NCBI GenBank assembly: GCA_965205505.1
Contig: CBDBHB010000006.1
Span: forward strand, 416,001 to 480,000
DNA: 64,000 bases
DNA from: Acidobacteriota bacterium
GTDB taxonomy: Bacteria; Acidobacteriota; UBA890; WLXD01
Direction: 5' to 3'
The position numbers were made by a program, and so were the translations under genes. Under the pieces are notes generated by a model that had not been told where the DNA came from, did not search any database, and saw only the letters and a program-made list of their open reading frames with translations. Numbering within the stretch: the stretch's first letter is position 1; every line of letters begins with the position of its first letter. This document shows positions 1 through 52,504 of this stretch, piece after piece.

Positions 1-1
1 C

Positions 2-955
2 GACGGTGATCTCGATCTGGCGACTGCGAACCAGCAGGCGAACAGTGTCTCGATTCTGCTGAACGACGGGCGCGGCAGATTCGTCGCCGGCGTCACGATC
101 GAGGGGTTGCAGCGGCCCGAGGCGCTTGCGACAGCCGATGTGGACGCCGATGGCGACCTGGACCTGGCGATCGTCAACGCTGGTGCGGACAACGTTGCTC
201 TGCTGCTGAACGACGGCAGTGCCGGGTTTACCCTCGGTGCCACGATATCGGTCGGGTCCAGCCCGCACGCCATCGTCGCCGTGGACATCGACGGCGACGG
301 CGACACTGATTGGGCCGTGTCGGACTTCGGATCTGCGACTGTATCGATACTGGCCAACGATGGCAGCGGCGGCTACAGCCTCGTGACTGTCGTCGAGGCG
401 AGCCCTGGCACGGAGCGGGCGGTCGTTGCAGATCTGGATTCGGACGGCGATGCCGACCTCGCAGTTTCCAGCTTCAGCGCCGCCACCGTGAACGTGCTGA
501 TCAACGACGGTTCCGGTGGCTTCACGCCGGGAGCAGCGTTGACTCTGGGAGCGCGACAGCACATTGCAGCGGGCGGCGATCTCGACGGCGACGGGGATGT
601 CGACATGATTGTCACCAGCTCGGGCACCGGAGAGGTAATGCTGCTCGACAACCACGATGGGTCGCTGGAGCACGACGTATCGGTGATCGTGCCCGAGACA
701 CCCTGGGCGGCCGTGGTTCTCGACTACGACGGCGACGGAGACCTCGACGTGGCCGTCGCCGACTACTCCGGCCATCGTGTCTCGATGCTGCAGAACGACG
801 GCGCCGGTCAGCTCGAAGTGGCGTTCTCAGTGGCGGTCGGCCAGCAGCCCCACCAGGTCGTGTCGGGGGACTACGACGGCGATGGCGTGCCGGATCTGGC
901 AACCGCCAACGACGCCGAGGCCACCATCACGGTCCTTCTGAGTCGACACTCTTGA
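2..955 (+). CDS. FG-GAP/VCBS repeat beta-propeller protein (5' partial)
   Basis: Repeated DxDGDGDxDL Ca-binding motifs followed by VSILLNDG. The frame is open from base 2, so the gene starts before the window. Confidence 0.9.
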   Translation, partial: DGDLDLATANQQANSVSILLNDGRGRFVAGVTIEGLQRPEALATADVDADGDLDLAIVNAGADNVALLLNDGSAGFTLGATISVGSSPHAIVAVDIDGDGDTDWAVSDFGSATVSILANDGSGGYSLVTVVEASPGTERAVVADLDSDGDADLAVSSFSAATVNVLINDGSGGFTPGAALTLGARQHIAAGGDLDGDGDVDMIVTSSGTGEVMLLDNHDGSLEHDVSVIVPETPWAAVVLDYDGDGDLDVAVADYSGHRVSMLQNDGAGQLEVAFSVAVGQQPHQVVSGDYDGDGVPDLATANDAEATITVLLSRHS

Positions 956-1080
956 GCTGTTCGCCGGATCCGGATAGCTGTGCGGGGGGATTGGACGTTG
1001 GTCGGCCGACGTTGCAAGGTACTCGCCCGGGACTGCAACTTGCACCCCTCGAGAATCAACAACCCTAACGAAGCGCCGGA

Positions 1081-1650
1081 GTGAGCATGGCGACGAATCA
1101 CCGTATCGTCGATCTGGTCGGACACGATCGCAAGATGATCAGCCGACTCGGTCCGCTCGTCTTCGAAGCCCTCAAGCAACATTCTCCCAACTGGCTGCCG
1201 ACGGTCAACGACGCGACGCTAGAGATCCTGGAATCGCTGACTCCCGGACGCCTGAGCCGGGTACTGATCGATTCGGCAGGAGAGCCCGTGGGCTGGATCG
1301 GCATCATCCCTCATAGCGGTGGCCGCGTCTGGGAGATCCACCCGATTGCGGTTGCAACCGCGCACCAAGGCTACGGCTACGGGCGCGTGCTGATCGAGGA
1401 TATCGAGCGACACGCGCGCGAGCAGGGCGTTCTGACCCTGTGGGCCGGTACCAGCGACGAGATGGGATTGACCAACCTGGCCGACGTCGATCTATATGCC
1501 GATCCCGCGGGCGCTATCTCCGACATCGCCAGCATCAAGCCCCACGCATGGGAGTTCTGGGCCAGCGTCGGGTTCACCGTCGTAGGTCTCATGCCGGATG
1601 CGGAGGGACGGGGCAAGCCGAGCATCGTTCTGGCCAAGAGGGTGGATTGA
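1081..1650 (+). CDS. GNAT acetyltransferase, AAC(6')-Ia/Ii-like family
   Basis: Motifs WEIHPIAV, QGYGYGR (acetyl-CoA binding), LWAGTSDE and VVGLMPDAEGRGKPSIVLAK follow the AAC(6')-Ia pattern. An alternative ATG start is at 1087. Confidence 0.8.
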   Translation: MSMATNHRIVDLVGHDRKMISRLGPLVFEALKQHSPNWLPTVNDATLEILESLTPGRLSRVLIDSAGEPVGWIGIIPHSGGRVWEIHPIAVATAHQGYGYGRVLIEDIERHAREQGVLTLWAGTSDEMGLTNLADVDLYADPAGAISDIASIKPHAWEFWASVGFTVVGLMPDAEGRGKPSIVLAKRVD

Positions 1651-1653
1651 AAA

Positions 1654-2067
1654 GTGTTGAACGGCACTCGGTGGTTCTTACGCATCGCCTTGGCGGCCGG
1701 GTTTCTGTCGGCGACGGCGGATCGAGTCGGTCTGTGGGGAGCGCCAGGGGCCCCCGGCGTCGCCTGGGGAAAGTGGTCGGAGTTTCTGGATTACGTCGCG
1801 GCGCTCAACTGGTTCCTGCCGGCGTTCCTCATCCCGCTGGTGGGCTGGGTTGCCACGCTTGGCGAAATCGCTTGCGCGATCGCTCTCCTGGTAGGGTGGC
1901 GGTTGAAGTTGGCCGCATGCGCCAGCGGCGTGCTGCTGCTCTTGTTCGCGCTGACCATGGCCATCGCCGAGGGGATCAAGTCACCGCTGGATTCGTCGGT
2001 CTTCGCCGCCGCCGGCGGCGCCTTCCTGCTTGCGGCGGTGACGGCCGATGAGGATCGTTCCTGCTAA
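1654..2067 (+). CDS. DoxX family membrane protein
   Basis: FLRIALAAGFLSATADRVGLWG and AWGKW..F..Y motifs, about 4 TM helices. Confidence 0.8.
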   Translation: MLNGTRWFLRIALAAGFLSATADRVGLWGAPGAPGVAWGKWSEFLDYVAALNWFLPAFLIPLVGWVATLGEIACAIALLVGWRLKLAACASGVLLLLFALTMAIAEGIKSPLDSSVFAAAGGAFLLAAVTADEDRSC

Positions 2068-2509
2068 GCCGAGCTCAGGCTGACCGTCCCGGGTCCTGCT
2101 ACGAGTTCTGGAAGAGTAGGCCGAAGCGCTTTCCATCTTGCTTCGTGTCCTCCGTTGGCAGCTGACCGATAGGTTTTCGACCACGGTGTCGGCCTCGGGT
2201 TGTTTTGCAGGTGCCCGAGCTTGTGGTCCTGAGCTACGTAACCGAGCTTCATGTGCAGCTCTCGAGCTCCGGACAGTTCGACGGCCTGGGCATTGGCCGC
2301 GTGGCCTCGTCCAACGGACAGGCAACGGTGGGCTTGGGGCTCCATGTCGACAGCGCGCTGGCCGCCGCGGTTGCCAGCGGGGCGGTCGACCTCGACGGTG
2401 ACAGGCCAGCTCGCCGGTGTGTTCTCTGTCATCGGTACGTCGGCGAGCGATCGAATGCGGGTCTCGGTCGCCGTGGAGCAGGACACGTAGGCCGAGGCCA
2501 CTCAACGCG

Positions 2510-2630
2510 TAACGGCGAGGATCGCCTCCGTGGCGCCCCAGCCGCGTGTCGTCGGCGAGATATACCTCGCCCAAGCCACCGTTGCCGAGCAATGCGGTCA
2601 GCTCGTAGGGTCCGGGTAGGGTACCGATAG
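2510..2630 (-). pseudogene. Ser/Thr protein kinase N-terminal remnant
   Basis: The minus strand reads GTLPGPYELTALLGNGGLGEVYLADDTRLGR (kinase subdomain I), then degenerates before the VAIK motif. Confidence 0.7.
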
Positions 2631-2688
2631 GTGAGTAAGGCCCGCGCGGCTATCATGGCGCGCGGACCCATACGAAGGAGGCGACCCG

Positions 2689-4467
2689 ATGAACCAGAGA
2701 TCTCGGAGCGGCGGCCGTTGCGTGGTCGCGGTTGTTGGCATGGCGCTGGCTTCGTGTGGTGGCGGCGGGCCGACGGCAGAAGAGGCGGCCGACGTCGCGC
2801 TGGTCAACGGCAAGATCATCACCGTCGACGCCACCGATAGCGTTGCCGAGGCCGTTGCGGTGAAGGACGGTCGCATCGTCGCGGTCGGCTCGAGCGCCGA
2901 GATCGACACACTGGTCGGTGTATCCACCCGCAGGATCGATCTCGGTGGCCGGGCGGCAACGCCGGGGCTGCTCGACGCTCACGCTCACTTCGGCAACGGC
3001 CGCGCCACGCGCATGTTCGTACTCGATCTCAGTTACCCAGGTGTGACTTCGGTCGCCGATGTGGTCGACAAGGTCGCCGAGCGTGTCGCGCAGGCCGAGC
3101 CCGGCGACTGGATCCGCGGCCGTGGCTGGGACGAGGGCAAGTTCGAGGAGTTGCGCTACGTCACCGCAGCCGACCTCGACGCGATCGCTCCCGACAACCC
3201 CGTGTGGCTGACGCACACCATGGGGCACTATGGCACCGCCAACAGCCTGGCGATGGAGCTTGCCGGCGTTACCCGCGACACCCCGGATCCGCCCGGCGGC
3301 ACCATCGATCACGACGCCGACGGCAACGCCACGGGCGTGTTGAAGGAGCGCGCCCAGGGGCTGGTCAACGGTCTGATTCCACCGATGAGCCCCGAGCAGG
3401 TGCGCGAAGGCATGCGCGACCTGTCGCAGGCCTTCAACGCCGAGGGCATGACCGGGGTGAAGGACCCCGGCATCGGGCAGGCAACCTGGGACGCGTACGC
3501 CGACGTGCTCGCCGATGGCGACCTCTCGGTCAGGGTATTCGTCCTGTGGCGCAGCCGGGGAGACCTGAGCGACGCGGAGGCGTTGGCGGAGCGTGTGGGG
3601 CCGTTTACCAGGCCGTACGAATCGACCGGCGACGATCGTTTGATCTCCGGTGGTATCAAACTCATGATCGACGGCAGCGGCGGGGCGCGCACCGCCTGGA
3701 TGTACGACGACTGGAACCGCGATTTCGACCAGGTCGACATCGGCAATCGCGGCTACCCGGTGGAGCCGGCGGAGCTGATTCGCGACAAGATTCGGCTGTT
3801 CCACGACGCCGGCCTCCACGTCAGCACCCACTCGATCGGCGATCGAGGCATCGACTGGGTGGTCGACAGCTACGCCATGGCGCTCGAGGACAATCCCCGT
3901 CCCGGACTACGCCACGGCATTATCCACGCCAACATCCCCACCGACCACGCCATCGACACGATGGCGCGGCTACAGCGAGAGTTCGACGCCGGCTTCCCGG
4001 AGCCCTCGCCGCCCTTCATGTGGTGGATCGGCGATACCTACGCCGGCAACTTCGGCCCCGATCGGGCGTTGCGCCTCAACCCGTTCGCGACCTTTGTCGA
4101 GAAGGGCATCCCCTGGGCAAGTGCGTCCGATTTCAGCGTTACGCCGTTCGAGGCCCGCTATGGGTTGTGGGCGTCGGTGGCACGCGAGACCTTGCTGGGC
4201 GTGTACGGCGACAACCCGTACGGATCAGACGAGTCGGTGGATATCCGCACCGCGCTACGCTCCTACACCATCTGGAGCGCGCGCCAGATGTTCCTGGAGG
4301 ACAAGATCGGCTCGATCGAGGTCGGCAAGTACGCCGATATCGCGGTATGGGACCGTGACCCGTACACGGTGCCCACGGCCGACATCAAGGACATGGTGTG
4401 CGAGATGACGCTTTTCGACGGCCGCGTCGTGTACGTCAACCCGCAGACCACGCTCGACATTCCATAA
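2689..4467 (+). CDS. Amidohydrolase 3 (YtcJ-like), putative lipoprotein
   Basis: LASC lipobox; DAHAH, GGIKLMIDGS, HSIGDRG and GSIEVGKYAD motifs; GGAGG RBS. Confidence 0.9.
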   Translation: MNQRSRSGGRCVVAVVGMALASCGGGGPTAEEAADVALVNGKIITVDATDSVAEAVAVKDGRIVAVGSSAEIDTLVGVSTRRIDLGGRAATPGLLDAHAHFGNGRATRMFVLDLSYPGVTSVADVVDKVAERVAQAEPGDWIRGRGWDEGKFEELRYVTAADLDAIAPDNPVWLTHTMGHYGTANSLAMELAGVTRDTPDPPGGTIDHDADGNATGVLKERAQGLVNGLIPPMSPEQVREGMRDLSQAFNAEGMTGVKDPGIGQATWDAYADVLADGDLSVRVFVLWRSRGDLSDAEALAERVGPFTRPYESTGDDRLISGGIKLMIDGSGGARTAWMYDDWNRDFDQVDIGNRGYPVEPAELIRDKIRLFHDAGLHVSTHSIGDRGIDWVVDSYAMALEDNPRPGLRHGIIHANIPTDHAIDTMARLQREFDAGFPEPSPPFMWWIGDTYAGNFGPDRALRLNPFATFVEKGIPWASASDFSVTPFEARYGLWASVARETLLGVYGDNPYGSDESVDIRTALRSYTIWSARQMFLEDKIGSIEVGKYADIAVWDRDPYTVPTADIKDMVCEMTLFDGRVVYVNPQTTLDIP

Positions 4468-4491
4468 ACCTCACGCACTTCGGAGTTGAAT

Positions 4492-6774
4492 ATGCGTACC
4501 AATTGCCCGCCCCCGTTTCCCGCGTCGAGCGCGTTCATCGTCGCCGCTTTGCTGCTCGCCCCAACGCTTGCGGCCCCGGTCGAGGGCCAGGCCCCGGCCG
4601 ATGGGCCACGTGCCATGACCTTCCTCGACATGCAGCACATGGCTCGTGCCGGCTCCTTCACCCCTAGCCGCGACGGCAAGTGGATGCTGTACACGGTAAC
4701 CACACCCGATTGGGAGGAAGCGACGCAGCAGTCCGACATCCATTTGGTGTCACTGGAGCAGGGCGCCGCGTCGGGTCGTCGCATGACCTACACGGACGAC
4801 AAGAACGAGGGCTCCCCGGCATGGTCGCGCGACGGACGCTTCTTCGTGTTTGCTTCTGACCGCGACTCTGACGACGATAACGACCAGCTGTATCTGATGC
4901 GCCCGGATGGCGGCGAGGCGCGGCGAATCACGGATGCCGAGGACGGCGCGTCGAACTTCGCCTTCAGCGACGACGGCCAGTGGCTCGTCTACCGCAGCGG
5001 CGAGTCCGGCCGGGAGGAGCTGTTTCGACTTCCGGTGCAGGGCATCCACGCGGCCGTCGCCGAGCAGCTCACCGACGCCGCCGCCGGTGTCGAAGGCTGG
5101 GAGTGGGCTCCGGATAGCCGCCGGATCTACTTCGCCAGGCCCGATAGCGCCGATGCGGACGAGCGCTTGCGCACCGAGATGAAGTTCACCGTCGACGTTC
5201 GCAACCAGGAGACGCCGCTCTCGAGCCTGTGGGCGCTCGAGCTCGATTCGCTGGAGGCGACTCGGTTGACCGACAATGCGAGCATGAGCGTGGCGAGCTT
5301 CACGGTCTCCGACGACGGTCGCTGGGTGGGCTTCACGGGATCTTCGGCCGAGCGCTACGAGCGCAACATCACCGAGGAGCGTATCAACGCCGACCTCTAC
5401 CTGCTCGAGACCTCGACCGGGCATGTGGAGCGATTGACCGACAACCACGAGGTCGGTGAAGGCAGCATGAGCTTCTCGCCCGACGGGCGTCTGCTGGCGT
5501 TCTCCGCGCCCGGCGACATGCACGCCTACAGCATGAAGAACCGTCGCATCTACGTGCGCGAGGTCGAGGAGCGGGGCGGCGCGTTCCGCCAGGTCGGCAC
5601 CGGGTTCGATGGTCACGCCTCGCCGAGCTTCTGGTCCGACGACGGCGCGACCATCTTCTTCAACGGCGGCGTGCGTGTTACCAGCCAGCTTCACGGGGTC
5701 GACGTGGCCAACGATAGGGTGCAGCAGCTGACGCACGCAGAGGCCGCGCTCAGGGTCAGCCGCGACCGCGACTCCGGCGTGCTGCTGATCAACTACTCCG
5801 ATCCGAGCACCCCGCCGACGCTGTTCACGGTGGCCAGCGTCGAGGAGGTGGGCACGCGCTCGGCATGGAAGCAGCTCGTCGACGTCAACCGCCAGATAGA
5901 AGGCCTCGCCCTGGGCGAGGAGACCGAGGTCACCTGGACGTCGACCGACGGCAAGCAGGTCGGCGGCGTGCTGATGAAGCCGGTAGGCTACGAGGAAGGC
6001 AACCGCTACCCGCTCATCGTCGCCATCCACGGTGGCCCCGCCGGCGCCGACACGCTGCGGTTCAACGGCGGCTACGGATCACAGGTGTACGCTGGCGCCG
6101 GGTACGCGGTGTTGAAGCCCAACTACCGAGGCTCGTCCAACTACGGCGAGGAGCACCGCACCGCAATTGTCGGCAACTACTTTCCGCAGGGCTACGACGA
6201 CATCATGACCGGCGTCGACCACCTCATCGCCGAGGGCATAGTCGACCCCGGTCGCATGGGGGCGCTCGGCTGGAGCGCCGGCGGGCACTGGTCGAACTGG
6301 ATCCTCACCCACACCGACCGCTTCAAGGCGATCAGCTCCGGGGCGGGCACCTCGAACTGGATCTCGATGTACGCGCAGAGCGACGTACAGCGCAACCGCC
6401 AGTTCTACCTCGGCAACGACCTCCCGTACGACAACTACGACGCCTACTGGGAGCAATCGCCGATGAAGTACATCAAGAATGCCAAGACGCCGACGATGAT
6501 CCATGTGGTCGAGGGCGACCCGCGCGTTCCCAGCCCGCAGTCGGTCGAGCTGCACATGGCGCTCAAGAAGCTCGGTGTGCCGACCGAGCTGTACATGTAC
6601 CCGGGTCGCAGCCACGGCATCCCCGATCCGCGCAACCGGCTGGTGAAGTCGGTCAGCGAGATGGCGTGGATGGATTACTACGTGCGGGGCATCGGCGAGA
6701 AGTTCGCCTGGCGCGACGTGCTGAAGACACTCGAGGGCGAACCGGAAAAGACCGACGCGAACGGTGGCAGCTGA
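4492..6774 (+). CDS. S9 family serine peptidase with beta-propeller
   Basis: Signal peptide, PD40-like repeats, IHGGP, NYRGS, GWSAGG nucleophile, DPRV and SHG catalytic motifs. Confidence 0.92.
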   Translation: MRTNCPPPFPASSAFIVAALLLAPTLAAPVEGQAPADGPRAMTFLDMQHMARAGSFTPSRDGKWMLYTVTTPDWEEATQQSDIHLVSLEQGAASGRRMTYTDDKNEGSPAWSRDGRFFVFASDRDSDDDNDQLYLMRPDGGEARRITDAEDGASNFAFSDDGQWLVYRSGESGREELFRLPVQGIHAAVAEQLTDAAAGVEGWEWAPDSRRIYFARPDSADADERLRTEMKFTVDVRNQETPLSSLWALELDSLEATRLTDNASMSVASFTVSDDGRWVGFTGSSAERYERNITEERINADLYLLETSTGHVERLTDNHEVGEGSMSFSPDGRLLAFSAPGDMHAYSMKNRRIYVREVEERGGAFRQVGTGFDGHASPSFWSDDGATIFFNGGVRVTSQLHGVDVANDRVQQLTHAEAALRVSRDRDSGVLLINYSDPSTPPTLFTVASVEEVGTRSAWKQLVDVNRQIEGLALGEETEVTWTSTDGKQVGGVLMKPVGYEEGNRYPLIVAIHGGPAGADTLRFNGGYGSQVYAGAGYAVLKPNYRGSSNYGEEHRTAIVGNYFPQGYDDIMTGVDHLIAEGIVDPGRMGALGWSAGGHWSNWILTHTDRFKAISSGAGTSNWISMYAQSDVQRNRQFYLGNDLPYDNYDAYWEQSPMKYIKNAKTPTMIHVVEGDPRVPSPQSVELHMALKKLGVPTELYMYPGRSHGIPDPRNRLVKSVSEMAWMDYYVRGIGEKFAWRDVLKTLEGEPEKTDANGGS

Positions 6775-6788
6775 GAAGAGCGTTGGCC

Positions 6789-7095
6789 GTGTCCGAGGCC
6801 GCCGTACGATTCGACGATATCCACAAGAGCTACGGCGAGACCGTCGCGCTGTGCGGCGTGTCGTTCGAGGCTCGTTCTGGCGAGGCGTTCGGGCTACTGG
6901 GTCCCCAACGGTGCCGGCAAGACCAGCCTGATCGGGGTGCCAGTCTGGGAGCTGGCGCTGGCGCCGGGAATTCTGATCATCTCGACCTGGCTGGCGCTCA
7001 AGCTCGGGGCGCGGCTGTTTCGCATCGGGCTGCTGGCGCTCGGTAGCCGTCCGAAGCTGAACGAAATCTGGCGTCAGGCGCGCCTATCTAGATGA
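6789..7095 (+). pseudogene. Deleted ABC transporter operon remnant (ATPase N-terminus joined to permease C-terminus)
   Basis: IHKSYGETVAL..VSF..GEAFGLLGP/NGAGKT has a +1 shift in Walker A. It is followed directly by a NatB/YhaP-like permease tail (ARLFRIGLLALGSRPKLNEIWR). Confidence 0.75.
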
Positions 7096-7188
7096 GATGA
7101 GAAGGCCAACCTCCTGAACGCAGTAGCCTGACGGCTCTGCAAACGTTTCTTCAAACGTAACGGGCTCGAAGCCCAAGGAGGTTGGCCG

Positions 7189-8234
7189 ATGAGGAGTGTA
7201 ACGATTGGACTGGACGTAAGCGACCGGTACAGCCGTATGTGCGTGCTCGACAGTAAGGGCAGGGTGATGGAGGAAGGGCGGGTGAGGACGAGCCCGGAGG
7301 GGCTGGCGAGGCGGTTCGGGTGCGAGGAGCCCGCTCGAGTAGTGCTGGAGGTTGGAACGCACTCGCCGTGGATGAGTGAGCAGTTGAAGCAACTGGGTCA
7401 TGAGGTGCTGGTGGCTAACCCGAGGCGGCTGAAGCTGATCTATGGCGAGCACGACAAGACCGACCGGTTGGATGCCGAGCACCTGGCACGAGTGGGCAGA
7501 ATGGACCCAAAGCTGCTTAAGACGGTGCAGCATCGAGGCAGACAAGCGCGAGCGGATCTAGCCGTGATTCGGAGCCGAGATGCTCTGGTAAAGAGCCCAC
7601 GCAGTTGGTGAGCCATGTGCGTGGTGCGGTCAAGTCGGCCGGTTGTCGTATTCCCAGGTGCTCGACGCCGGCGTTCGCGCGCACCGCGCCAGAGCACATA
7701 CCGGAGCGGCTCAAGGGAGCGCTCGAGCCGGTGCTTGAAACGATCGCCATGCTGACGGGCAACATCCAGCAATACGAGCGTCAGATCGTGCAGCTGTGCC
7801 AGGGGCGATACCCGGAGACACAGCAGCTCCAGCAAGTGGCCGGGGTCGGAGCTCTGACCGCACTGGCGTATGTGCTGACGCTCGAGGAGCCGGAGCGGTT
7901 CAATACCTCCAGAGCCGTGGGCCCGTACCTGGGACTGAGACCGAAGAAACGGCAGTCGGGGGACAAGGACCCTGCGCTACGAATAACCAAGGCGGGCGAC
8001 AAAATGCTCCGACGCCTGTTGGTGGGCTCGGCGCATTACATCCTGGGCCCCTTCGGGCCCGATACTGAGCTCAGACGCTGGGGGCTCAAGCTGGCCGGAC
8101 GCGGTGGTCCTCATGGCAACAAAAAGGCAGCAGTTGCTGTCGCCCGTAAGCTCGCCGTTGTGCTGCACCGACTGTGGCTGAGTGGAGACGAGTACGAACC
8201 GTTGCGCGCACCTGTAGAGGTTTCAGCAGCATGA
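7189..8234 (+). pseudogene. IS110-family DEDD transposase/recombinase, frameshifted near 7597
   Basis: IGLDVS, VVLEVG and KTDRLDA in 7189-7611; GVG..TA, YLGLRPKKRQSG and KKAAVAVARKL in 7605-8234. One base is missing at AAGAGC-C-CACGCAG. Confidence 0.88.
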
Positions 8235-8480
8235 ACTAACCCGCAACCAGGAGGTCGGTAGGGCGACGCGACCCAACGGTTATCGATCTGACCGCCCGGT
8301 CCGGGCGACTGCGAAGGTCACTACGAGCTTCGAGCTCGGCAGCTAGATTGCAGCGCCTCGAATCGGGACGGACCCCAGAATGCACCGGACGACCTGAATC
8401 CTCGTCCACCAGAGTGCGAATAGGAGCATGGCGTGCAGATCGATTCTTCGCTGGCCACCACATTGCCCTTGACCGAACTA
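8235..8480 (+). ncRNA. Candidate seekRNA/bridge RNA in the IS1111 3' non-coding region
   Basis: The position is typical of IS1111. Short segments flanking hairpins match the reconstructed target and donor junctions. Confidence 0.55.
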
Positions 8481-8494
8481 GGCCTTCTCATAGA

Positions 8495-8770
8495 AGTGGC
8501 CTGTAGCAGATGATCGTTGCCTATCGCAGATGGGATTTGCGGGTGAGATCAAGGCGCGGCGAGGAAGGCGATGCAGAGGGCATCGTCGACGAGGCGCAAC
8601 GCCGATATCGCCCGCAACTGCCCATCTGTCCGGAGGATGGCGGCGAAATCGGCCCGTCTGCGGCGTTGCTCCTCCTCCAAGATGGGCAAACATCGTCTCG
8701 TCGTCGCGCCTGGCATCCGGACCCATTTCGCCACCACGATACGCAACGATCATCTGTTACAGACCACTAG
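8495..8770. repeat. ~278-bp palindromic MITE/REPIN-like element, copy 1 (left tip split by the IS)
   Basis: 34-bp terminal arms match at 31/34 once CT 7088-7089 is rejoined. CTAG ends and two internal hairpins. Confidence 0.8.
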
Positions 8771-8774
8771 TGGC

Positions 8775-9545
8775 CTATTTCCGTCGGCTCGGAACTGGAA
8801 CCTGAAGAACTTGGCCGGGGTAGATGCGCGTCGACTGCAGCGCGTTGTTGGACTGGATACGGTCGGTCGTTGTGCCGTGGTTCTGCGCGATTCTCCAGAG
8901 CGTGTCACTACGACTCACTCTGTAGGCCACGACATCGGTGAATCCGGTGCCGGAACGCGGACTCGACCGGCCGACAAGTTGCCGCACATACTCGGCATAC
9001 TGGCGTGGGAACAGCGCCACGTGGTAGTGCGGCGGGTGTTTCTCGGCCGCGGCCTCGAGCACGCCGCGCTCTTCGAGCGACAGCAGGATTCTCTCGAGCC
9101 AGCTACGACACGACGGCTTGTTGTGCCGCCGCAGGTCGATTGCCATCCCGGTCGGGTGTACCGACCGGGGCGATGCGTTGCGCGGCTGACCGGTTTGCGG
9201 GCGCGTCAGGCTGGTGACCACCAGTTGCTCGCCGCAGGCGGCGCGAAACTGCGCCGCCAACCGCTCGGTGAAGAGCTTTACCTCCGGCCGCGCGTAGGGG
9301 TATGAGAGATCCTTGAGGGTGTAGTCGCGATTGCCGCGCAGCTGCACCAGCAAGCCGGCGCTTACGAACCGGGAAACGTGCGTTCCGTCGCGCATGAACG
9401 TGAAGTCGTGCACGCTAGCCTGGTGGTTCTGGCGGTCCATCGAGCTGCGGCTGCCACGGAGGCTCTGCGCGTCCGCCGCGCTTGCAGACAGTGCCAGCCC
9501 GACAAGAGCAGCAAGAAGATATGAGACTGTCTTTTGAATCGTCAA
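8775..9545 (-). CDS. DUF5715-like (M15-type zinc peptidase fold) protein with C-terminal LysM
   Basis: Signal peptide; VTSLTR, SVHPTGMAIDL and PPHYHV motifs; LysM YRVSRSDTLWRIA..IYPGQVL. Start is uncertain (TTG 9545; ORF open to 9614). Confidence 0.8.
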   Translation of the reverse strand: MTIQKTVSYLLAALVGLALSASAADAQSLRGSRSSMDRQNHQASVHDFTFMRDGTHVSRFVSAGLLVQLRGNRDYTLKDLSYPYARPEVKLFTERLAAQFRAACGEQLVVTSLTRPQTGQPRNASPRSVHPTGMAIDLRRHNKPSCRSWLERILLSLEERGVLEAAAEKHPPHYHVALFPRQYAEYVRQLVGRSSPRSGTGFTDVVAYRVSRSDTLWRIAQNHGTTTDRIQSNNALQSTRIYPGQVLQVPVPSRRK

Positions 9546-9700
9546 AATATTGTTGAGTCGTGAAAACACGTTAAACCAAGGCCAACAATTGTTGAAGATG
9601 CTATAAGCTATCATTAGCTAGTTTCACCTAACAAGAGTTTGTTGAACACGTTTATTGACCGCGAAGAATCGCCATGCGCTAGCTGATGATTCGGATTGGG
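9546..9700. promoter_or_regulatory. AT-rich divergent promoter region
   Basis: Sharp GC drop between divergent genes, palindrome CAACAATTGTTG, repeated TTGTTGA and AACACGTT. Confidence 0.5.
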
Positions 9701-9727
9701 CCCGGCGTGTGCCACTATGATTTGTGC

Positions 9728-10969
9728 ATGGCCGAAACAGCAGAACCCCGAAGTGGCCTGGTAGGGCAAGGACGTGGCCAACAGCGGCCAGCAGTGCGCA
9801 GCAATGCGCCTGCGGCGCAGTCAATGGCTGGCAAGGTCCTGGGCGCGGTCCGCGCCAGACATTCCGAGGCGGTGGAATTTCTTCGGAAGCTCGTTTTCGC
9901 CGAGACCCCGACGCTCGAGCCGCATACACAGACCGTGGCGCTCCAGCAGCTCACCGAGGGGCTGGCGGCGGCCGGTCTCCGGTGTCGGCGACATTCGGGC
10001 TACACCAGCGGCGGCATGCTGTTGGCTAGCTGGCCACGCCAGCGGCGTTCGTCGCTGCAGTTGCTGATCGGCCACTGCGACACTGTTTGGCCGCTCGGCA
10101 CACTCGAGACCATGCCGGTCGAGATAGAGGGATCGCGCATGCGGGGCCCCGGCGTGTATGACATGAAATGCGGTGTAACGCAGACGGTGTATGCGTTGCA
10201 CGTGTTGCGGGACCTCGGCTTGGAGCCCGAGGTCAAGCCGGTGGTGTTCATCAACTCCGACGAAGAGATCGGTAGCCACGATTCCGAGAAGTACATTCGG
10301 TGGCTCGCCGGCTGTGTCGACCGAGCCTACGTCATGGAGCCGTCGCTGACGTCGGCAGGCTGGCTGAAAACGGCCCGCAAGGGGGTGCGGCAGTATCGAG
10401 TCAAAGTAACTGGCCGGGCGGCTCACGCCGGGTTGAATCCTGAGGAGGGAGTGAGCGCCATCTTGGAGATGTCGCGTCTGGTGGAAGAGCTGTTCGCGCT
10501 CAACGACGCCCAGCGCGGTATCAGCGTAAACGTCGGGATCATCGGTGGCGGAACGCGCTCGAACGTCATCGCTGCCGAGTGTGTGGCAGATGTCGACGTG
10601 CGCGTTCCGACGCTCGATGACGCGTCGCGGGTCGACGCCGCGATCCGCAGCCTGACGACCACGCACCCGGCCGCAACCGTGCAGGCGGTTCAAGCGCAAG
10701 GACGGTCGCCCATGGAGCAGACCGCCGGCGGGAAGTCGCTTTGGGACGCCGCGCGGCGTCACGCCGAGAGCCTGGGCTTTGAGCTCGAGCACGGACGCGC
10801 CGGCGGCGGATCGGACGGCAACATAACCAACCTCTACACGCCGACGCTCGACGGGCTCGGCGCCGTCGGCGACGGCGCGCACGCCTCGCATGAATATGTC
10901 GATCTCGAGCAGATGGTCGAACGTACGGCGCTGCTGGTGTTGCTTTTGTTGGAGCCGCCACTCTCGTGA
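9728..10969 (+). CDS. M20 metallopeptidase (carboxypeptidase G2-like)
   Basis: GHCDTVW, GPGVYDMK, SDEEIGS, GGGSDGN and GAHASHE motifs. Start is uncertain. Confidence 0.9.
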   Translation: MAETAEPRSGLVGQGRGQQRPAVRSNAPAAQSMAGKVLGAVRARHSEAVEFLRKLVFAETPTLEPHTQTVALQQLTEGLAAAGLRCRRHSGYTSGGMLLASWPRQRRSSLQLLIGHCDTVWPLGTLETMPVEIEGSRMRGPGVYDMKCGVTQTVYALHVLRDLGLEPEVKPVVFINSDEEIGSHDSEKYIRWLAGCVDRAYVMEPSLTSAGWLKTARKGVRQYRVKVTGRAAHAGLNPEEGVSAILEMSRLVEELFALNDAQRGISVNVGIIGGGTRSNVIAAECVADVDVRVPTLDDASRVDAAIRSLTTTHPAATVQAVQAQGRSPMEQTAGGKSLWDAARRHAESLGFELEHGRAGGGSDGNITNLYTPTLDGLGAVGDGAHASHEYVDLEQMVERTALLVLLLLEPPLS

Positions 10970-11532
10970 CCCTGCGCATACCCGTCGTGCTGGGCAGCAT
11001 TCGCCAGGGTCGCAACACGCCACGGCTGGCACGCTTCATTCTGCGCAAGCTCGGAGAGCGCGACGATGTGCAATCAGACTTGATCGACCTGCGCCGGCTG
11101 GAGCTTCCGCTGGTCGAAGAACGGTTGCGTTTTCTCGACGAGCCGCCGCCTGGGCTGACTGCGCTGAGCGAACACATCGACCGCGCCGACGCGGTGGTCA
11201 TTGCCACGCCGGAATACAACAAGGGTTACCCGGCGGCGCTCAAGAACGCCATCGATGCATTGGGCTCGGAATGGCGTCGCAAGCCCGTCGGAATCGTGGC
11301 CCACTCGGTGGGGGCGTTCGGTGGCATGGTGGTGCTGCAACAACTTCGCATTGTCCTCATGAACCTGGGGGCCGTGCCGATTCCCGCCGCGATGACCGTG
11401 CCGAACATCGAGCACACCCTCGACGTGGATGGTGCGGCGCTCGACGAGGCCTTCGAGGGCCGGGGTGGCCGCTTCGTCGACGAGCTGCTCTGGTACGCGC
11501 GAGCGCTGAGAAATGCTAGCGCAGACGGATGA
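10966..11532 (+). CDS. NADPH-dependent FMN reductase
   Basis: LGSIRQGR and TPEYNKGYPAALKNAID motifs. Confidence 0.92.
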   Translation: MTLRIPVVLGSIRQGRNTPRLARFILRKLGERDDVQSDLIDLRRLELPLVEERLRFLDEPPPGLTALSEHIDRADAVVIATPEYNKGYPAALKNAIDALGSEWRRKPVGIVAHSVGAFGGMVVLQQLRIVLMNLGAVPIPAAMTVPNIEHTLDVDGAALDEAFEGRGGRFVDELLWYARALRNASADG

Positions 11533-11637
11533 CATCAGAGTCGCAGAGCCGGCTCGAATTGCTCCTCTGACGCGGCTGTCGTAAGCTCCCGTGACTCTGT
11601 TTTGGTCTAGTCCCACCGCGCGAGGCAAGATGCGTTC

Positions 11638-13422
11638 ATGAGCGTCCCCGAGGAGAAGTTCGTCGACGAGGCTGGGCCCGATGATGCCCACGCACACGGC
11701 GAGAGCTTCATCTGGAAGTACGTCTTCTCGACCGATCACAAGACCATCGGGATCCAGTACGGCCTGACGGCTCTGTGCTTTCTGTTGTTCGGCTTCTGCC
11801 TGATGCTGCTGATGCGCTGGCAGCTGGCCTCGCCTGGCGCGCCCATACCCATCATCGGCGGCTTCCTGGGCCAGGCAAACGCGCCGGGCGGCATCATGCT
11901 GCCGGAGTTCTACAACCAGCTCGGTGCCATGCACGGCACCATCATGGTGTTCCTCGCCATCGTGCCGATGATCGTCGGCGCCTTCGGCAACTACGTCGTG
12001 CCGCTGCAGATCGGCGCCCCCGACATGGCGTTCCCGAAGCTCAACATGGCGAGCTACTGGTTCTACTTCGTCGGTGGCGTGGTCATGCTGGCGAGCTTCT
12101 TCCTTCCCGGCGGTGCGGCGAACTCGGGCTGGACCTCATACGCACCGCTCTCGATTATCGCCACGATGGGACAGACGGCGTGGCTGATCGGCATGATCTG
12201 CCTGATCAACTCGTCGCTGCTCGGATCGATGAACATCATCGTGACCATCTTCCAGCTGCGCGCGCCGGGTCTTACCTGGATGCGACTGCCATTTTTCGTC
12301 TGGGCGCAGCTGGTCACCTCGTTCTTGCTCGTGCTGGCGTTCCCGCCGCTCGAAGCGGCGGGGGCGATGCAGCTCATGGATCGCCTCGCCGGCACCAGCT
12401 TCTTCATGCCCAGCGGCCTCTACGTGTCGGGGCAGATTCTCGAGTATGCCGGTGGCGGCTCGGTGCTGCTGTGGCAGCATCTCTTCTGGTTCCTGGCGCA
12501 CCCAGAGGTTTACGTGCTAGTCCTGCCGGCGATGGGCATCGTCGCCGAGGTGATTGCCAACAACACCCGCAAGCCGCTTTGGGGCTACAAGGCGCTGGTG
12601 TACTCGACGGTGTTTCTCGGCTTCATGTCCTTCGTCGTGTGGGCGCACCACATGTTCATGACCGGCATGGGCACGGTGATCAGCGCCTTTTTCCAGACCA
12701 CCACGATGATCATCTCGATCCCGTCGGTGGTGATCTTGACGGCCTTGCTGATCTCTCTGTGGGGCGCCTCGATCCGCTTCAACACGCCGATGTTGTTCGC
12801 GCTGGCTTTCCTGCCCATGTTCGGCATCGGCGGGCTGACAGGGCTGCCGCTCGGTCTGGCGCCAGCGGACATCCACCTCCACGACACGTACTACGTGATC
12901 GGGCATTTCCATTATGTCGTGGCGCCCGGAACCATCTTCGGCATCTTCGCCGGCATCTACTACTGGTTCCCGAAGATTACCGGCCGGATGATGAACGAAG
13001 TGCTTGGCAAGCTGCACTTCTGGGGGTCGCTGGTCTTCATTAACTGCATCTTCGCACCGATGTTCCTGCAGGGGTTGGCCGGCGTATCACGGAGGCTGTA
13101 CGACGGTGGCGCCCAGTACTCGCACGCCCAGCCCGTGCTGCACTGGAACACCTTCATCTCGTACTCGGCGTTCCTACTGGCGGCGGCGCAGATCCTCTTC
13201 ATCGTCAACTTCCTGTGGAGCATCTTCCGCGGCAAGCGCGCGACCGCCAACCCGTGGGAGGCCACCACGATCGAGTGGACGGCTACCACCTCGCCGCCGC
13301 TCGGACACGGCAACTTCGAGACCCTGCCGAAGGTGTACCGGGGTCCCTACGAGTACAGTGCGCCCGGTGCAGAGGACAGCTTCATCGCTCAGGATGCGGC
13401 GCCCGCGCCGCAGGGGGGATAG
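11638..13422 (+). CDS. ctaD: Cytochrome c oxidase subunit I (A1-type HPEVY)
   Basis: DHKTIG, MHGTIM, PDMAFP, HPEVY, WAHHM and HDTYYVIGHFHY motifs. Confidence 0.97.
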   Translation: MSVPEEKFVDEAGPDDAHAHGESFIWKYVFSTDHKTIGIQYGLTALCFLLFGFCLMLLMRWQLASPGAPIPIIGGFLGQANAPGGIMLPEFYNQLGAMHGTIMVFLAIVPMIVGAFGNYVVPLQIGAPDMAFPKLNMASYWFYFVGGVVMLASFFLPGGAANSGWTSYAPLSIIATMGQTAWLIGMICLINSSLLGSMNIIVTIFQLRAPGLTWMRLPFFVWAQLVTSFLLVLAFPPLEAAGAMQLMDRLAGTSFFMPSGLYVSGQILEYAGGGSVLLWQHLFWFLAHPEVYVLVLPAMGIVAEVIANNTRKPLWGYKALVYSTVFLGFMSFVVWAHHMFMTGMGTVISAFFQTTTMIISIPSVVILTALLISLWGASIRFNTPMLFALAFLPMFGIGGLTGLPLGLAPADIHLHDTYYVIGHFHYVVAPGTIFGIFAGIYYWFPKITGRMMNEVLGKLHFWGSLVFINCIFAPMFLQGLAGVSRRLYDGGAQYSHAQPVLHWNTFISYSAFLLAAAQILFIVNFLWSIFRGKRATANPWEATTIEWTATTSPPLGHGNFETLPKVYRGPYEYSAPGAEDSFIAQDAAPAPQGG

Positions 13423-13425
13423 GCG

Positions 13426-14010
13426 ATGGACATTCCCTACACTGTCGAAGCGCGGCCCGACACCGGCCTTTACAACGCCAAGCTCGGAATCTGGTTGTTT
13501 CTGGCGTCCGAGGTGATGCTGTTCGGGGCACTGTTCTCGTCGTACATCCTGCTCAGGACCAGCGACCCCAACTGGTACCACGCCGACCTCAACGTCCCGA
13601 TGGCCACGTTGAACACCATGTTTCTGATCACCTCGTCGGTGACCGTGGTGCTGTCGTGGGCGTCACTGCGCCTCAACGACTTCGCCAAGTTCAAGTTGTG
13701 GGGAATCGCTACCTTCCTGCTCGCTTCGGCGTTCATGGTGGTCAAGGCCTTCGAGTACAACGAGGAGTTCACCCACGGTCTGTATCCCGCCACCAACAAT
13801 TTCATGGCGGTGTACTTCACCATGACCGGCCTGCACGGGCTGCACGTGCTCGGCGGCATGATCGTGATCGCCTACCTCCTAGGTCCTGGCGCCAAGATGT
13901 GGAACACGGCGCCCGAGCGGTTCACGAATCGCGTCGAGACCTTCGGCCTGTACTGGCACTTCGTCGATCTGGTGTGGATCTTCCTGTTTCCCGCCCTGTA
14001 CCTGCTTTAG
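13426..14010 (+). CDS. ctaE: Cytochrome c oxidase subunit III
   Basis: WLFLASEVMLF, TGLHGLHV and YWHFVDLVW motifs. Confidence 0.95.
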   Translation: MDIPYTVEARPDTGLYNAKLGIWLFLASEVMLFGALFSSYILLRTSDPNWYHADLNVPMATLNTMFLITSSVTVVLSWASLRLNDFAKFKLWGIATFLLASAFMVVKAFEYNEEFTHGLYPATNNFMAVYFTMTGLHGLHVLGGMIVIAYLLGPGAKMWNTAPERFTNRVETFGLYWHFVDLVWIFLFPALYLL

Positions 14011-14019
14011 GGAGCCCCG

Positions 14020-14361
14020 ATGAGCGGCCACAGCCCGGAAGAGATCCAGCAGGAAGTGCGTAAGTACTTCATGGTCTTCGGCGCCCTGGCAGTGCTGACG
14101 GCGGTGACCGTCGCGGTCAGCTACCTCGACCTGACGTCCGGTTTGGCGGTAACCCTGGCGATGATTATCGCCACCGTCAAGGGGTCGCTGGTTGCCGGTT
14201 ACTTCATGCACCTGCTCGACGAGAAGAAGCTCATATACAGCATCCTGTTGTTGACCCTCATGTTCTTCATCGTGCTGATGGGCCTGCCGGCGGGGACCAT
14301 AGCCGACACGACGGGCGAACCGATCCACGCAGCCGCACCGACGTCCCCGGCGGAGCATTGA
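14020..14361 (+). CDS. ctaF: Cytochrome c oxidase subunit IV
   Basis: 3 TM helices, KGSLVAGYFMHL motif. Confidence 0.88.
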   Translation: MSGHSPEEIQQEVRKYFMVFGALAVLTAVTVAVSYLDLTSGLAVTLAMIIATVKGSLVAGYFMHLLDEKKLIYSILLLTLMFFIVLMGLPAGTIADTTGEPIHAAAPTSPAEH

Positions 14362-14362
14362 G

Positions 14363-14566
14363 ATGTCGTTGAAGTCGTTTCACGTGGTGTTCATCTGTGC
14401 TTCGATCGTCCTCTGCTTCATGGTCGGCGCCTGGGCACTCCAGCAGTATCGACTCTCCGACGAGACCGGGCACCTGTGGTTGGCGGTGGTGTTCTACGCG
14501 AGCGGCGTAGCCCTGGTGGCCTACGGCCTACGGTTCGTACGCAAGATCCGGGAGCTGGGAATCTGA
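14363..14566 (+). CDS. Small 2-TM membrane protein in the cox operon
   Basis: Tightly packed with its neighbours, hydrophobic, begins MSLKSFHVVFI. Confidence 0.7.
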   Translation: MSLKSFHVVFICASIVLCFMVGAWALQQYRLSDETGHLWLAVVFYASGVALVAYGLRFVRKIRELGI

Positions 14567-14829
14567 TGCTTAGCCGGGTGGCTTCGATCGTGATACTGAC
14601 CGCCTCGGCGGCGCTCGTTCCGGCCGTCGCCGAGGCGTGCCCGGTCTGTTATGGCGATATCGGCGGTCCGGCGGCGCGCGGCATCAACAACGGAATCCTG
14701 TCGATGCTGGCCGTGGTCGGCGTCGTTCAGATCGGCTTCGTAATGCTGTTCGTGGGCATGTGGCGCCGCGGCAAGCTGCTGCGCGAGCGTAAGGAGAGCT
14801 TCAAGGTGATTGACGGAGGCGTGCGATAA
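14566..14829 (+). CDS. Small exported/membrane protein with CPVC motif
   Basis: ATG overlaps the upstream TGA. Signal peptide ends AEA, followed by CPVCYG and one TM helix. Confidence 0.7.
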   Translation: MLSRVASIVILTASAALVPAVAEACPVCYGDIGGPAARGINNGILSMLAVVGVVQIGFVMLFVGMWRRGKLLRERKESFKVIDGGVR

Positions 14830-15690
14830 ATGCTCTCGCTCATGCAGCAGTGGATGCCGGTAAATGGTGCGGCCCACGGACAGGCGCTGGACGAGATGTC
14901 GGCGCTAGTGCATTGGGTGATGCTGATCTTGTTCGTCGGCTGGGGGCTCTACTTCGCTTACGTCCTGTTTCGTTTCCGCGCCGGCGCCAATCCGCGCGCC
15001 AGCTACAAGGGCGCCACCAGCCACTTCTCACAGTACGTCGAGGTCAGCGTCGGCGTCATCGAGGTGGTGTTGCTGGTTTTCTTCGCCATTCCGGCGTGGG
15101 CGAGCTGGGTCGACCCGCCGGCCGACGGCGAGGCACTCGAGATCCGCGTGGTCGCCGAGCAGTTTCTGTGGAACGTTCAGTACAGCGGACCCGACGGTGT
15201 CTTCGGTCGTACCGGGCTCGAGTTCATTACGCCGACCAACACCATCGGGATCGACCGCTCGGACCCCTATGCGGTCGACGACGTTATCTCGACCAACCAG
15301 CTGCATCTGCCGGTAGATCGACCGATCACGCTGCTGCTGTCCTCGAAGGACGTGATCCACAGCTTCGCCCTGCAGCAGATGCGTGTGAAGCAGGACATCA
15401 TCCCCGGTCTCATGATCCCGGTGCATTTCACCCCGATCATGGTGACGCCGGAGGAGTCGGCGTATCCGGCCTGCGCCGGCGACAAGACGTGCTGGGAGAT
15501 CACCTGCGCACAGCTTTGCGGCCTCGGCCACTTCCGCATGCGCGGCTTTTACACCATCTACGAGCAGGCGGATTTCGATGCCTGGATGGCTGAACAAGTT
15601 GCCGCAGTCATGCCCGCGCCCGCAGCGGTCGAGGCAGAGGCAGCAGACGAGGAAGCCGAGCCGGAACCGGTCGTCCAGGGGGAGCAGTAG
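14830..15690 (+). CDS. ctaC: Cytochrome c oxidase subunit II
   Basis: 2 TM helices, DVIHSF, CuA motif CAQLCGLGHFRM. Confidence 0.95.
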   Translation: MLSLMQQWMPVNGAAHGQALDEMSALVHWVMLILFVGWGLYFAYVLFRFRAGANPRASYKGATSHFSQYVEVSVGVIEVVLLVFFAIPAWASWVDPPADGEALEIRVVAEQFLWNVQYSGPDGVFGRTGLEFITPTNTIGIDRSDPYAVDDVISTNQLHLPVDRPITLLLSSKDVIHSFALQQMRVKQDIIPGLMIPVHFTPIMVTPEESAYPACAGDKTCWEITCAQLCGLGHFRMRGFYTIYEQADFDAWMAEQVAAVMPAPAAVEAEAADEEAEPEPVVQGEQ

Positions 15691-15752
15691 AGTCGGCAAG
15701 CCCCGAGAGACGGCGGTCTAGCAACGGGAGGTTAGGCCATGAGGCTGTTCTC

Positions 15753-17177: not shown

Positions 17178-17197
17178 TCGCCTAGCTGGCCAACGAC

Positions 17198-52225: not shown

Positions 52226-52504
52226 CTAGCAGGCCGTGGTGAAAGTGTGGTGGGTCTGGTTACGGCGAGTTGGGGCCAGATGCAAGGCGGCCTGACACTG
52301 GCGATGACCTAGCCATCGTCGAGGAAGGCCAACGTCGCAGATGGCCCCAAATCGCCGTAACCCTTCGGGCGACAGGGGGTTGCGCGCGTATCCTGCGTCG
52401 TTCCTCGTCAACGATGGGGTAACCATCGCCTCCTCCTCTCTCCTTGCCTGCACTTCGCAAGACCCTGTCGCCAGACCCACCACACTTTCACCACGGCCTG
52501 CTAG
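52226..52504. repeat. 279-bp palindromic MITE/REPIN-like element, copy 2
   Basis: Perfect 34-bp terminal inverted repeat CTAGCAGGCCGTGGTGAAAGTGTGGTGGGTCTGG. Internal motifs are shared with 8495-8770. Confidence 0.85.

Follow-up and report, generated by a model that had tools for sequence, protein, structure and literature searches.

The stretch of DNA analyzed here (hereafter, the window) comprises 64,000 nt of an Acidobacteriota bacterium (assembly GCA_965205505.1, contig CBDBHB010000006.1, forward strand, positions 416,001-480,000) and carries, at positions 7090-8494, an insertion sequence (IS) of the IS1111 family that abuts a miniature inverted-repeat transposable element (MITE). We put at about 0.85 the probability that this IS is a non-autonomous, frameshifted copy of a family that moves by means of a DEDD recombinase guided by an RNA from the 3' non-coding region of the element itself (seekRNA, or bridge RNA). 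The target is a word of about 10 bp, CT^AGTG(G/A)CCT, in which the CTAG duplication is followed by the six bases that open the terminal repeat of the MITE; the palindrome as such is not recognized.

As we envisage the mechanism, the seekRNA would be transcribed from the 3' non-coding region of the IS and bound by the DEDD recombinase; its 5' guide, AGGUCACUA, would pair with the top strand TAGTG(G/A)CCT and, jointly with the 3' guide, would spell CT^AGTGRCCT. This word would be supplied mainly by one subfamily of the approximately 276-bp MITE, and the IS would insert in one orientation, with its right end against the MITE, two bases inside CTAG. A circular intermediate presumably forms, with a putative junction promoter in the circle, and the particular junction seen in the window would be a later product, either of recombination between two IS copies or of an assembly join.

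The insertion sequence and its target word

The element, the two halves of its target and the adjoining repeat occupy the following positions in the window.

7090..8494, + strand: IS1111-family insertion sequence, 1,405 bp (undeleted natural form 1,406 bp), with the ends fixed via the empty sites CTAGTGGCCT
7090..7096, + strand: left terminal extension AGATGAG, 7 nt
7097..7107, + strand: left subterminal inverted repeat (IR) ATGAGAAGGCC, complementary 11/11 to 8481-8491
8235..8494, + strand: 3' non-coding region, 260 nt
8481..8491, + strand: right subterminal IR GGCCTTCTCAT
8492..8494, + strand: right terminal extension AGA, 3 nt (AGA or GGA in relatives)
7088..7089, + strand: CT, left half of the target word, the first half of the CTAG duplication of the MITE
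8495..8502, + strand: AGTGGCCT, right half of the target word, consisting of the AG of CTAG and the 6 nt with which the terminal repeat of the MITE begins
8495..8770, no strand assigned: MITE copy, an imperfect palindrome of about 276 bp with arms at 8495-8526 and 8737-8770 and the right-hand CTAG at 8767-8770

The genome from which the window is taken (5.98 Mb in 9 contigs) harbors 27 full-length copies of the IS, with 98.7-100% identity, and 6 partial pieces, as detected by BLAST with the element. In the window, the flank that follows the right end of the IS (8494) begins AGTGGCCTGTAGCAGATGATCG. The right flank of the full copies is AGTGGCCT in 26 of the 27 and AGTGACCT in the remaining one, and the left flank is CT in 25 of the 27. 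When all ends in the genome are counted, AGTG(G/A)CCT abuts every one of the 31 true right ends, and CT precedes 26 of 28 left ends; one of the two exceptions is a 5-nt slip within the left extension, still after CT, and the other is TT. A 32nd match to the right-end pattern, at C9:1752269, is a chance 12-nt match without an IS and was removed from the count. Further to the left, bases -3 to -8 show no preference, and the left flanks are distinct over 1.5 kb in 26 of the 27 copies, so that these are separate, independent insertions in a single orientation.

The ends of the element follow from the empty sites. Uninterrupted CTAGTGGCCT occurs 109 times in the genome, compared to about 13 occurrences expected by chance (an estimate from base composition), whereas CTAGAAGTGGCC, the empty site predicted by an alternative boundary with a TAGA duplication, occurs 0 times. 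Thus, the boundaries given in a preliminary description of this DNA, with the IRs located 7 nt (AGATGAG) and 3 nt (AGA) from the IS ends and complementary to each other at 11 of 11 positions, hold. AG is present at both IS junctions and, by convention, one copy is assigned to the IS, so that there is no target duplication. Removal of 7090-8494 joins CT to AGTGGCCTGTAGCAG, and a base-by-base count on the resulting 34-nt string reproduces the 31/34 match to the reverse complement of 8737-8770 that is given in that description. The restoration of the repeat arm that was read from this match is formally right only because all sites share the same CT|AG junction, but the two flanks in the window were not neighbors before the insertion (see below). 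The two points on which the proposal had been staked, namely, where the other copies lie and what the empty site looks like, both turned out as anticipated, with copies in the same sequence and an empty site that reads CTAGTGG.

Beyond the target word, the sequence corresponds to a MITE end in 24 of the 31 insertions, where it continues as GTAACAG (13), GAGTCAG (6) or GTAGCAG (5). All 6 of the TGGCCTGAGTCAG-type ends that were found carry the IS. About 6 of the 31 insertions lie outside recognizable MITE ends, and in these the 7 nt after position +8 diverge (AACGCCT, CTGAGAA, GCGAGTC, GGGAGTC and others). Because the non-MITE flanks diverge straight after +8, the target is read as a word of about 10 bp rather than as a palindrome. 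Sites that differ at the variable base of CTAGTGNCCT are used very unequally, as follows.

G variant (TGGCC): occupied 30, empty 109
A variant (TGACC): occupied 1, empty 2
T variant (TGTCC): occupied 0, empty 87
C variant (TGCCC): occupied 0, empty 6

The difference in occupancy between the G and T variants corresponds to Fisher p = 2e-7.

The predicted guide RNA

The non-coding DNA of the IS is distributed asymmetrically, with 260 nt downstream of tnp, which encodes the transposase, versus 99 nt upstream. The downstream region contains the following predicted features.

8303..8357, + strand: predicted target-binding module of the seekRNA, with outer stem GGGCGACUGCG / GCAGCGCC, two guide strands and a central hairpin at 8325-8337
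8315..8323, + strand: putative 5' guide AGGUCACUA, complementary to the target top strand TAGTG(G/A)CCT
8342..8346, + strand: putative 3' guide GCUAG, in the same sense as the top strand (n)CTAG and followed by a conserved AU
8380..8429, + strand: predicted donor-binding module, with stem GCAC/GUGC, hairpin GGACGA...UCGUCC and putative donor guide AUAGGAG (8420-8426) matching the right end ATAGA + AG
8469..8474, + strand: TTGACC, a candidate -35 box of a promoter that would be completed only in the circular form

With TAGTGGCCT, the predicted 5' guide AGGUCACUA forms a duplex that includes one G:U pair; with TAGTGACCT, its pairing is perfect. The U at 8318 faces the variable base of the target, which can explain why the G and A sites are used and the T and C sites are not. 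The pairing ends at +8, which is also the last position at which the non-MITE flanks agree. All 27 full copies have the same target-guide module, and 25 of the 27 have the same donor module.

The comparison with related elements is the principal argument for the guide assignment. Relatives were collected by searching the proteins of 401 genomes from the phylum (E up to 1e-30), with transposase matches in 34 of these genomes, a tally that counts the own genome and two flagged unpublished; the best full-length relatives show 47-58% protein identity. Locus L009, from a genome flagged unpublished, was excluded throughout, and the flank tests were made without L007, L014, L015, L017, L018, L019, L022 and L027, in which one or both ends are missing or there is no exact IR of at least 10 nt; the scaffold described below is nonetheless present in L014, L019 and L027. 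Ten elements, an intact own copy included, possess exact subterminal repeats with the common core ATGA(G/A)(G/A)AGG and extensions AGATG.. on the left (AGATG(A/G)(G/A) at the position equivalent to the left extension in the window) and AGA or GGA on the right. The right flanks of these ten elements all start with AG and are otherwise unrelated.

The 3' regions of 15 elements share the scaffold GACUGCG-guide-hairpin-guide-AGAU(G/U)GCAGC, and the guides within it follow the targets. Among the 11 elements with both flanks, the 5' guide matches the own right flank over 8.27 nt on average, compared to 4.84 nt for the flanks of other elements, and the 3' guide matches the own left flank over 6.64 nt, compared to 4.80 nt for the others; the observed guide-flank sum was reached in 0 of 50,000 permutations for the 5' guide and, likewise, in 0 of 50,000 for the 3' guide. 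The 5' guide of the element in question matches its own target over 9 nt and the ten others over at most 5 nt. The consensus fold predicted by RNAalifold for 12 sequences has 17 base pairs, 6 of which show compensatory changes; these make up the closing stem, a second stem and, centrally, the hairpin.

The second conserved module ends with GUGCG-N-AU(A/G)GAAGC, and its A/G position agrees with the right-end AT(A/G)GA in 12 of the 12 aligned elements; AU(A/G)GAAG reads as a donor guide that would specify the right end and AG. CTTGAC just before the right repeat is also conserved in 12 of 12 aligned elements, with the TTGAC box located 6 nt upstream of the right IR, and would fit the -35 box of a junction promoter.

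Two further segments of this region were considered as guides and discarded: CUGGCCAC at 8451-8458 includes a base that is polymorphic among the copies (G in 18, C in 9) and lies outside the conserved scaffold, and CUCGUC at 8401-8406, a candidate donor guide, is the 3' strand of the conserved hairpin.

Several observations weigh against RNA guidance or, at least, against the details of the guide assignment. The own 9-nt match, with its one G:U pair, is not significant alone, and an unanchored scan of the whole non-coding region pairs over 10 nt with the target of locus L013 versus 9 nt with the own one. Unanchored matching of whole non-coding regions to targets is significant overall (p about 0.001 and 0.0001) and does not discriminate for the own element; it was replaced by the scaffold-anchored comparison of guides, and the assignment thus rests on the scaffold common to the relatives. 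The own 3' guide is limited to CTAG (5 nt if the preceding variable base is counted), and the 3' guides of L010 and L016 match their own left flanks over just 4 and 3 nt. The 12/12 agreement of the donor guide involves kin elements and may reflect just one or two changes. A search for a 5' donor guide yielded none that is convincing, the conserved CCCCA being mismatched to the own left end AGATGAG. The ends and target of each relative rest on one copy and the 7/3 rule, with a boundary ambiguity of 1-5 nt in two or three cases. Finally, a search of positions 6500-9500 against Rfam (E up to 1) gave no match.

The shortness of the own RNA match, together with the location of 24 of the 31 insertions at the ends of palindromic elements, could be taken to mean that the transposase protein alone recognizes the target, for example, via a hairpin or palindrome at the MITE end, as was once assumed for elements that target repetitive extragenic palindromic (REP) sequences, and that the complementarity in the 3' region is coincidental. 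We consider this very improbable. The flanks of the approximately 6 of 31 insertions outside MITE ends agree just through +8 and then diverge, exactly where the guide pairing ends; no insertion is found at the TGTCC ends (0 occupied, 87 empty) of MITEs that are just as palindromic; and relatives with unrelated targets have matching guides at equivalent positions of the scaffold. Moreover, a seekRNA was shown to be essential in four members of the IS1111 family (PMC11187229).

The MITE, the order of events and the window junction

The repeat adjoining the IS is multicopy in the genome of the window and is also present in all 4 same-genus genomes. A search with a 15-nt end motif, at most 2 mismatches allowed, detects 159 MITE end-like sites; CTAG stands before 110 of these and the right end of the IS before 18. 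In addition, 24 pairs of facing ends are 260-299 bp apart. By their ends, the copies fall into TGGCC, TGTCC, TGACC and TGCCC subfamilies. In the congeneric genome G118, the site orthologous to the right flank in the window has a single CTAG and neither IS nor MITE, whereas the genome of the window reads CT-IS-AG-repeat-CTAG there. A second orthologous site in G118 has no IS, no 14-nt stub resembling the terminal repeat and, again, a single CTAG. With its short length, many copies, terminal inverted repeats and these empty sites with a single CTAG, the repeat is a MITE, and its target duplication is CTAG in whole or in part.

The search for an autonomous partner of the MITE in the genome of the window gave 0 matches to PF13751 and 1 match to PF01609, which belongs to an IS whose ends are unrelated. 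L001, where two MITE-like ends enclose 2,043 bp, was also considered as a partner and rejected as it contains a 565-aa frame that is not a transposase, beside an ordinary MITE copy.

Neither the transposase (by protein search) nor the IS DNA is found in any of the 4 same-genus genomes, all of which contain the MITE. The MITE family is thus older than the IS insertions, and the IS arrived later. In the preliminary description, the IS was held to exploit the CTAG ends of a host repeat family. Given the MITE in the four IS-free congeners and the same target in the other IS copies, the exploitation of a pre-existing repeat stands, with the amendment that the recognized unit is the 10-bp word, which some insertions find outside MITE ends.

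The association could, in principle, have arisen the other way around, with the MITE inserting beside IS ends, or else by segmental duplication of IS+MITE blocks after few independent IS insertions. Some flanks are indeed common over at least 600 bp (the left flank in the window and that of C6:513833; the right flank in the window and that of C7:11323; the right flanks of C6:13156 and C6:189957), the right flank of C8:6868 overlaps that of C9:2702236, and the six TGGCCTGAGTCAG-type ends are all occupied. However, the left flanks are distinct in 26 of 27 copies, the MITE exists in four congeners without the IS, the right end of the IS (...CATAGA) offers no CTAG to a CTAG-seeking MITE, and the orthologous site in G118 is free of both MITE and IS, with one CTAG. 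We therefore regard this explanation as the least probable of those considered here, with hardly any weight next to insertion of the IS into a pre-existing target.

The left flank in the window (at least 11.8 kb, with an IS) recurs in inverted orientation at the end of contig C6 with 99.9% identity (C6:412751-424509 versus C6:512417-524174), and the right flank (11.3 kb, with an IS) is found again where contig C7 begins, also with 99.9% identity (C6:423088-434410 versus C7:1-11325); in window coordinates, the recurring flank DNA spans 1-7089 and 8495-18410. At both contig ends, another copy of the IS connects the recurring flank to DNA other than that in the window. The flanks are located about 228 kb apart on opposite strands in G118: the left flank (A) runs into the DNA to the right of the C6:513833 copy (C), and the DNA to the left of the C7:11323 copy (D) runs into the right flank (B). 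Considering this contiguity in G118 of each flank with its contig-end partner, the ancestral insertions were A-IS-C and D-IS-B, and the A-IS-B junction in the window is secondary. This leaves the consensus target unaffected, the CT|AG junction being common to all sites.

A-IS-B would then be either a recombinant between inverted IS copies, in which case it is an inversion that may be polymorphic among the cells sampled, or a chimeric assembly join. A chimera formed in assembly through the repeated IS, which would concern this junction only and is compatible with RNA-guided insertion, is a serious minority possibility in our estimation. It agrees with the recurrence of both flanks (11.8 kb and 11.3 kb, with the IS) at contig ends at 99.9% identity, with the separation and opposite strands of these flanks in G118, each contiguous there with the partner of its contig-end copy, and with the absence of the reciprocal junction D-IS-C from the assembly; however, a real inversion polymorphism between inverted IS copies gives the same picture. 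Furthermore, the three IS copies involved differ (1,405, 1,402 and 1,406 bp), and the 1-bp deletion of the window copy is in neither of the others, so that the window copy is not simply one of the other two assembled twice. For annotators, such IS copies are a warning: they mark points of rearrangement or mis-joining in this assembly.

Several additional observations pertain to the flanks and the repeats. At 6933/6934 of the window, about 1.9 kb is missing compared to G118, such that the start of an ABC-transporter ATPase gene is fused to the end of a permease gene; the TAG stop codon of this remnant frame lies, in G118, within the CTAG later used as the insertion site. The right flank of the C6:513833 copy contains, at C6:512417-512432, just a 14-nt stub like the MITE terminal repeat (TGGCCTGTAACAGG), which the orthologous site in G118 lacks. 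Mini-palindromes of about 21 bp that consist of two fused MITE ends are present in the genome as well. The gene adjoining the MITE in the window (8775-9614, - strand) encodes a protein with DUF5715 and LysM domains.

A second MITE family, with ends CTAG-CAGGCCGTGGTG, is represented at 52226-52504 of the window, with an equivalent empty site in G118, and at many other loci, often back to back with the first family at a common CTAG. Three IS left flanks terminate in the end sequence of this second family. In G118, which lacks the IS, a 124-bp relic (L046, G118:C12:90868-90992) that is 88% identical to IS positions 1247-1370 and extends from the 3' half of the target loop into the donor module, which it includes, adjoins a copy of the second family.

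The transposase, known systems and significance

The coding part of the IS and its leader contain the following features.

7104..7187, + strand: leader hairpin, GGCCAACCUCCU paired with the ribosome-binding site AGGAGGUUGGCC
7189..7611, + strand: transposase, N-terminal part (DEDD/RuvC-like), PF01548 (DEDD_Tnp_IS110), E 1.3e-15
7605..8234, + strand: transposase, C-terminal part in a shifted frame, PF02371 (Transposase_20), E 3.3e-17

The transposase in the window is split by a 1-bp deletion (a G lost between 7597 and 7598; alignment column 511). The protein of an intact copy scores 205.5 bits against NF033542, "IS110 family RNA-guided transposase" (cut-off 140), and contains, in the C-terminal domain at residues 249-258, the motif GLRPKKRQSG that fits GL-P----S(t)G. 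The leader hairpin has a predicted energy of -48.3 kcal/mol (z -5.18), with none of 200 shuffled sequences equally stable; joining the DNA adjacent to the left IR to the ribosome-binding site of the transposase, it looks like a translational brake.

The 348-aa frame is kept in 10 of the 27 full copies, and the other 17 are frameshifted, through a 4-bp deletion common to 12 copies and a 1-bp deletion common to 5, including the window copy; one IS copy has both deletions, and one further copy has other changes. Sequence variants are distributed mosaically among the copies, a pattern that fits gene conversion as well as trans-mobilization of defective copies, the two being indistinguishable from these data. 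A G/C variant at alignment column 1371 (window 8455), with C in all C6 and C7 copies and in one C9 copy and G elsewhere, hints at regional gene conversion or mixed strains. At C8:891216-892371, there is an internally deleted derivative of the IS that keeps positions 1-699 and 1062-1405 and, with these, both ends and the guide region.

All sequence-level features that define the IS1111 family in PMC11187229 are represented here, so that the IS1111-type assignment of the preliminary description is borne out by the DEDD transposase, the subterminal IRs, the 7/3 extensions and the long 3' non-coding region. As listed in that source, members of the family have a transposase of 330-350 aa, with a DEDD (RuvC-like) N-terminal domain and a PF02371 C-terminal domain that contains the GL-P----S(t)G motif; perfect or nearly perfect subterminal IRs of 11-13 bp, with extensions of 7 (or 6) bp on the left and 3 bp on the right; a longer non-coding region downstream of tnp; one specific target and one orientation, without target duplication once the ends are set correctly; and a circular intermediate whose abutted ends form a promoter. 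The seekRNA of this family comes from the non-coding region downstream of tnp, with the top-strand match located 5' of the bottom-strand match and the two overlapping in the target (PMC11187229). In the IS110 group proper (IS621-like), by contrast, the guide RNA is in the left end, upstream of tnp, and there are no long subterminal IRs, whereas in the present element the scaffold is downstream and the IRs are 11 bp long. A tblastn search of plasmids with the transposase gives matches of at most 36% identity that are annotated only as IS110 family, and a scan of contigs gives one match, with 43% identity. Among solved structures, the nearest, ISCro4 and IS621, match weakly, the IS621 chain with E 6e-8 and in the C-terminal half only.

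The closest parallel is IS1111 of Coxiella burnetii, in which 20 of 21 copies reside in the MITE QMITE2 (Wachter et al. 2018, PMC5896051). As that paper describes the system, it resembles the present one in that the target is a MITE, place and orientation are fixed, and the MITE predates the IS, but the site there is in the GTAG REP core, 10-20 bp from one MITE end, whereas here it is at the very end, inside the CTAG duplication. QMITE2 also marks the timing of IS1111 insertions between Coxiella strains (PMC5896051). The host of this founding member of the family belongs to a different phylum.

IS4321 and IS5075 target the 38-bp IR of large resistance transposons carried by plasmids. These elements likewise belong to the IS1111 family, with subterminal IRs, 7/3 extensions and insertion in one orientation into terminal IRs of the Tn21 family (as cited in PMC11187229). 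Where they use the IRs of plasmid-borne resistance transposons, the present IS belongs to an environmental bacterium and uses MITE ends on the chromosome. Site-specific insertion into REP sequences is described for ISPa11, ISPpu9/ISPpu10 and IS621 (PMC11187229, PMC12288879). Abundant, harmless chromosomal palindromic repeats serve as the target in these cases, too, but REPs are units of 20-40 bp mobilized by another type of enzyme, whereas the repeat here is a MITE of about 276 bp with terminal repeats and a CTAG duplication.

With respect to the RNA, the prediction resembles the seekRNAs of ISEc11, ISXne4 and ISKpn4, in which the RNA is located downstream of tnp, the top-strand match comes first and the two matches overlap, and natural reprogramming is seen among relatives, whose guides have changed while the stems are conserved (Siddiquee et al. 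2024, PMC11187229). The difference is that the seekRNA in the window is predicted from sequence alone, and that one guide U stands opposite G (wobble) at most sites. In IS621, the core dinucleotide is CT. The bridge RNA of that element contains a target loop and a donor loop, each with a top-pairing and a bottom-pairing strand, and these overlap at the core dinucleotide, AG in the present case (Durrant et al. 2024, PMC11208160). According to the same source, IS621 differs in that the RNA is in the left end, the order of the guides is reversed and the subterminal IRs are 2-3 bp long. Among the papers retrieved on IS1111 or IS110 with MITEs, none describes an insertion at the boundary between the duplication and the terminal repeat of a MITE, and no described IS1111-family element of the host lineage was found in the literature searched. 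The insertion at the MITE boundary differs from the documented cases in detail only, the insertion of IS1111 elements into repeats and ends of mobile elements being already known.

The frame is disrupted in 17 of the 27 full copies, but the target-guide module is the same and the ends are intact in every one of them. It is conceivable, albeit rather unlikely, that non-autonomous, RNA-guided copies are now the main form in which the element persists, moved in trans by a minority of intact ones, with a single guide U, which pairs with A or G and not with T or C, limiting the family to one MITE subfamily. If so, this would be a natural system to measure wobble tolerance and trans-mobilization in seekRNA-guided recombination. 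More generally, the 31 insertions and approximately 200 similar but empty sites, with differences at a single guide position, constitute a high-copy natural data set for what is probably an RNA-guided recombinase, in which single-base variants of the target are seen to be used or avoided and which would illustrate how an IS can spread without harm when it homes to the ends of MITEs from an older family.

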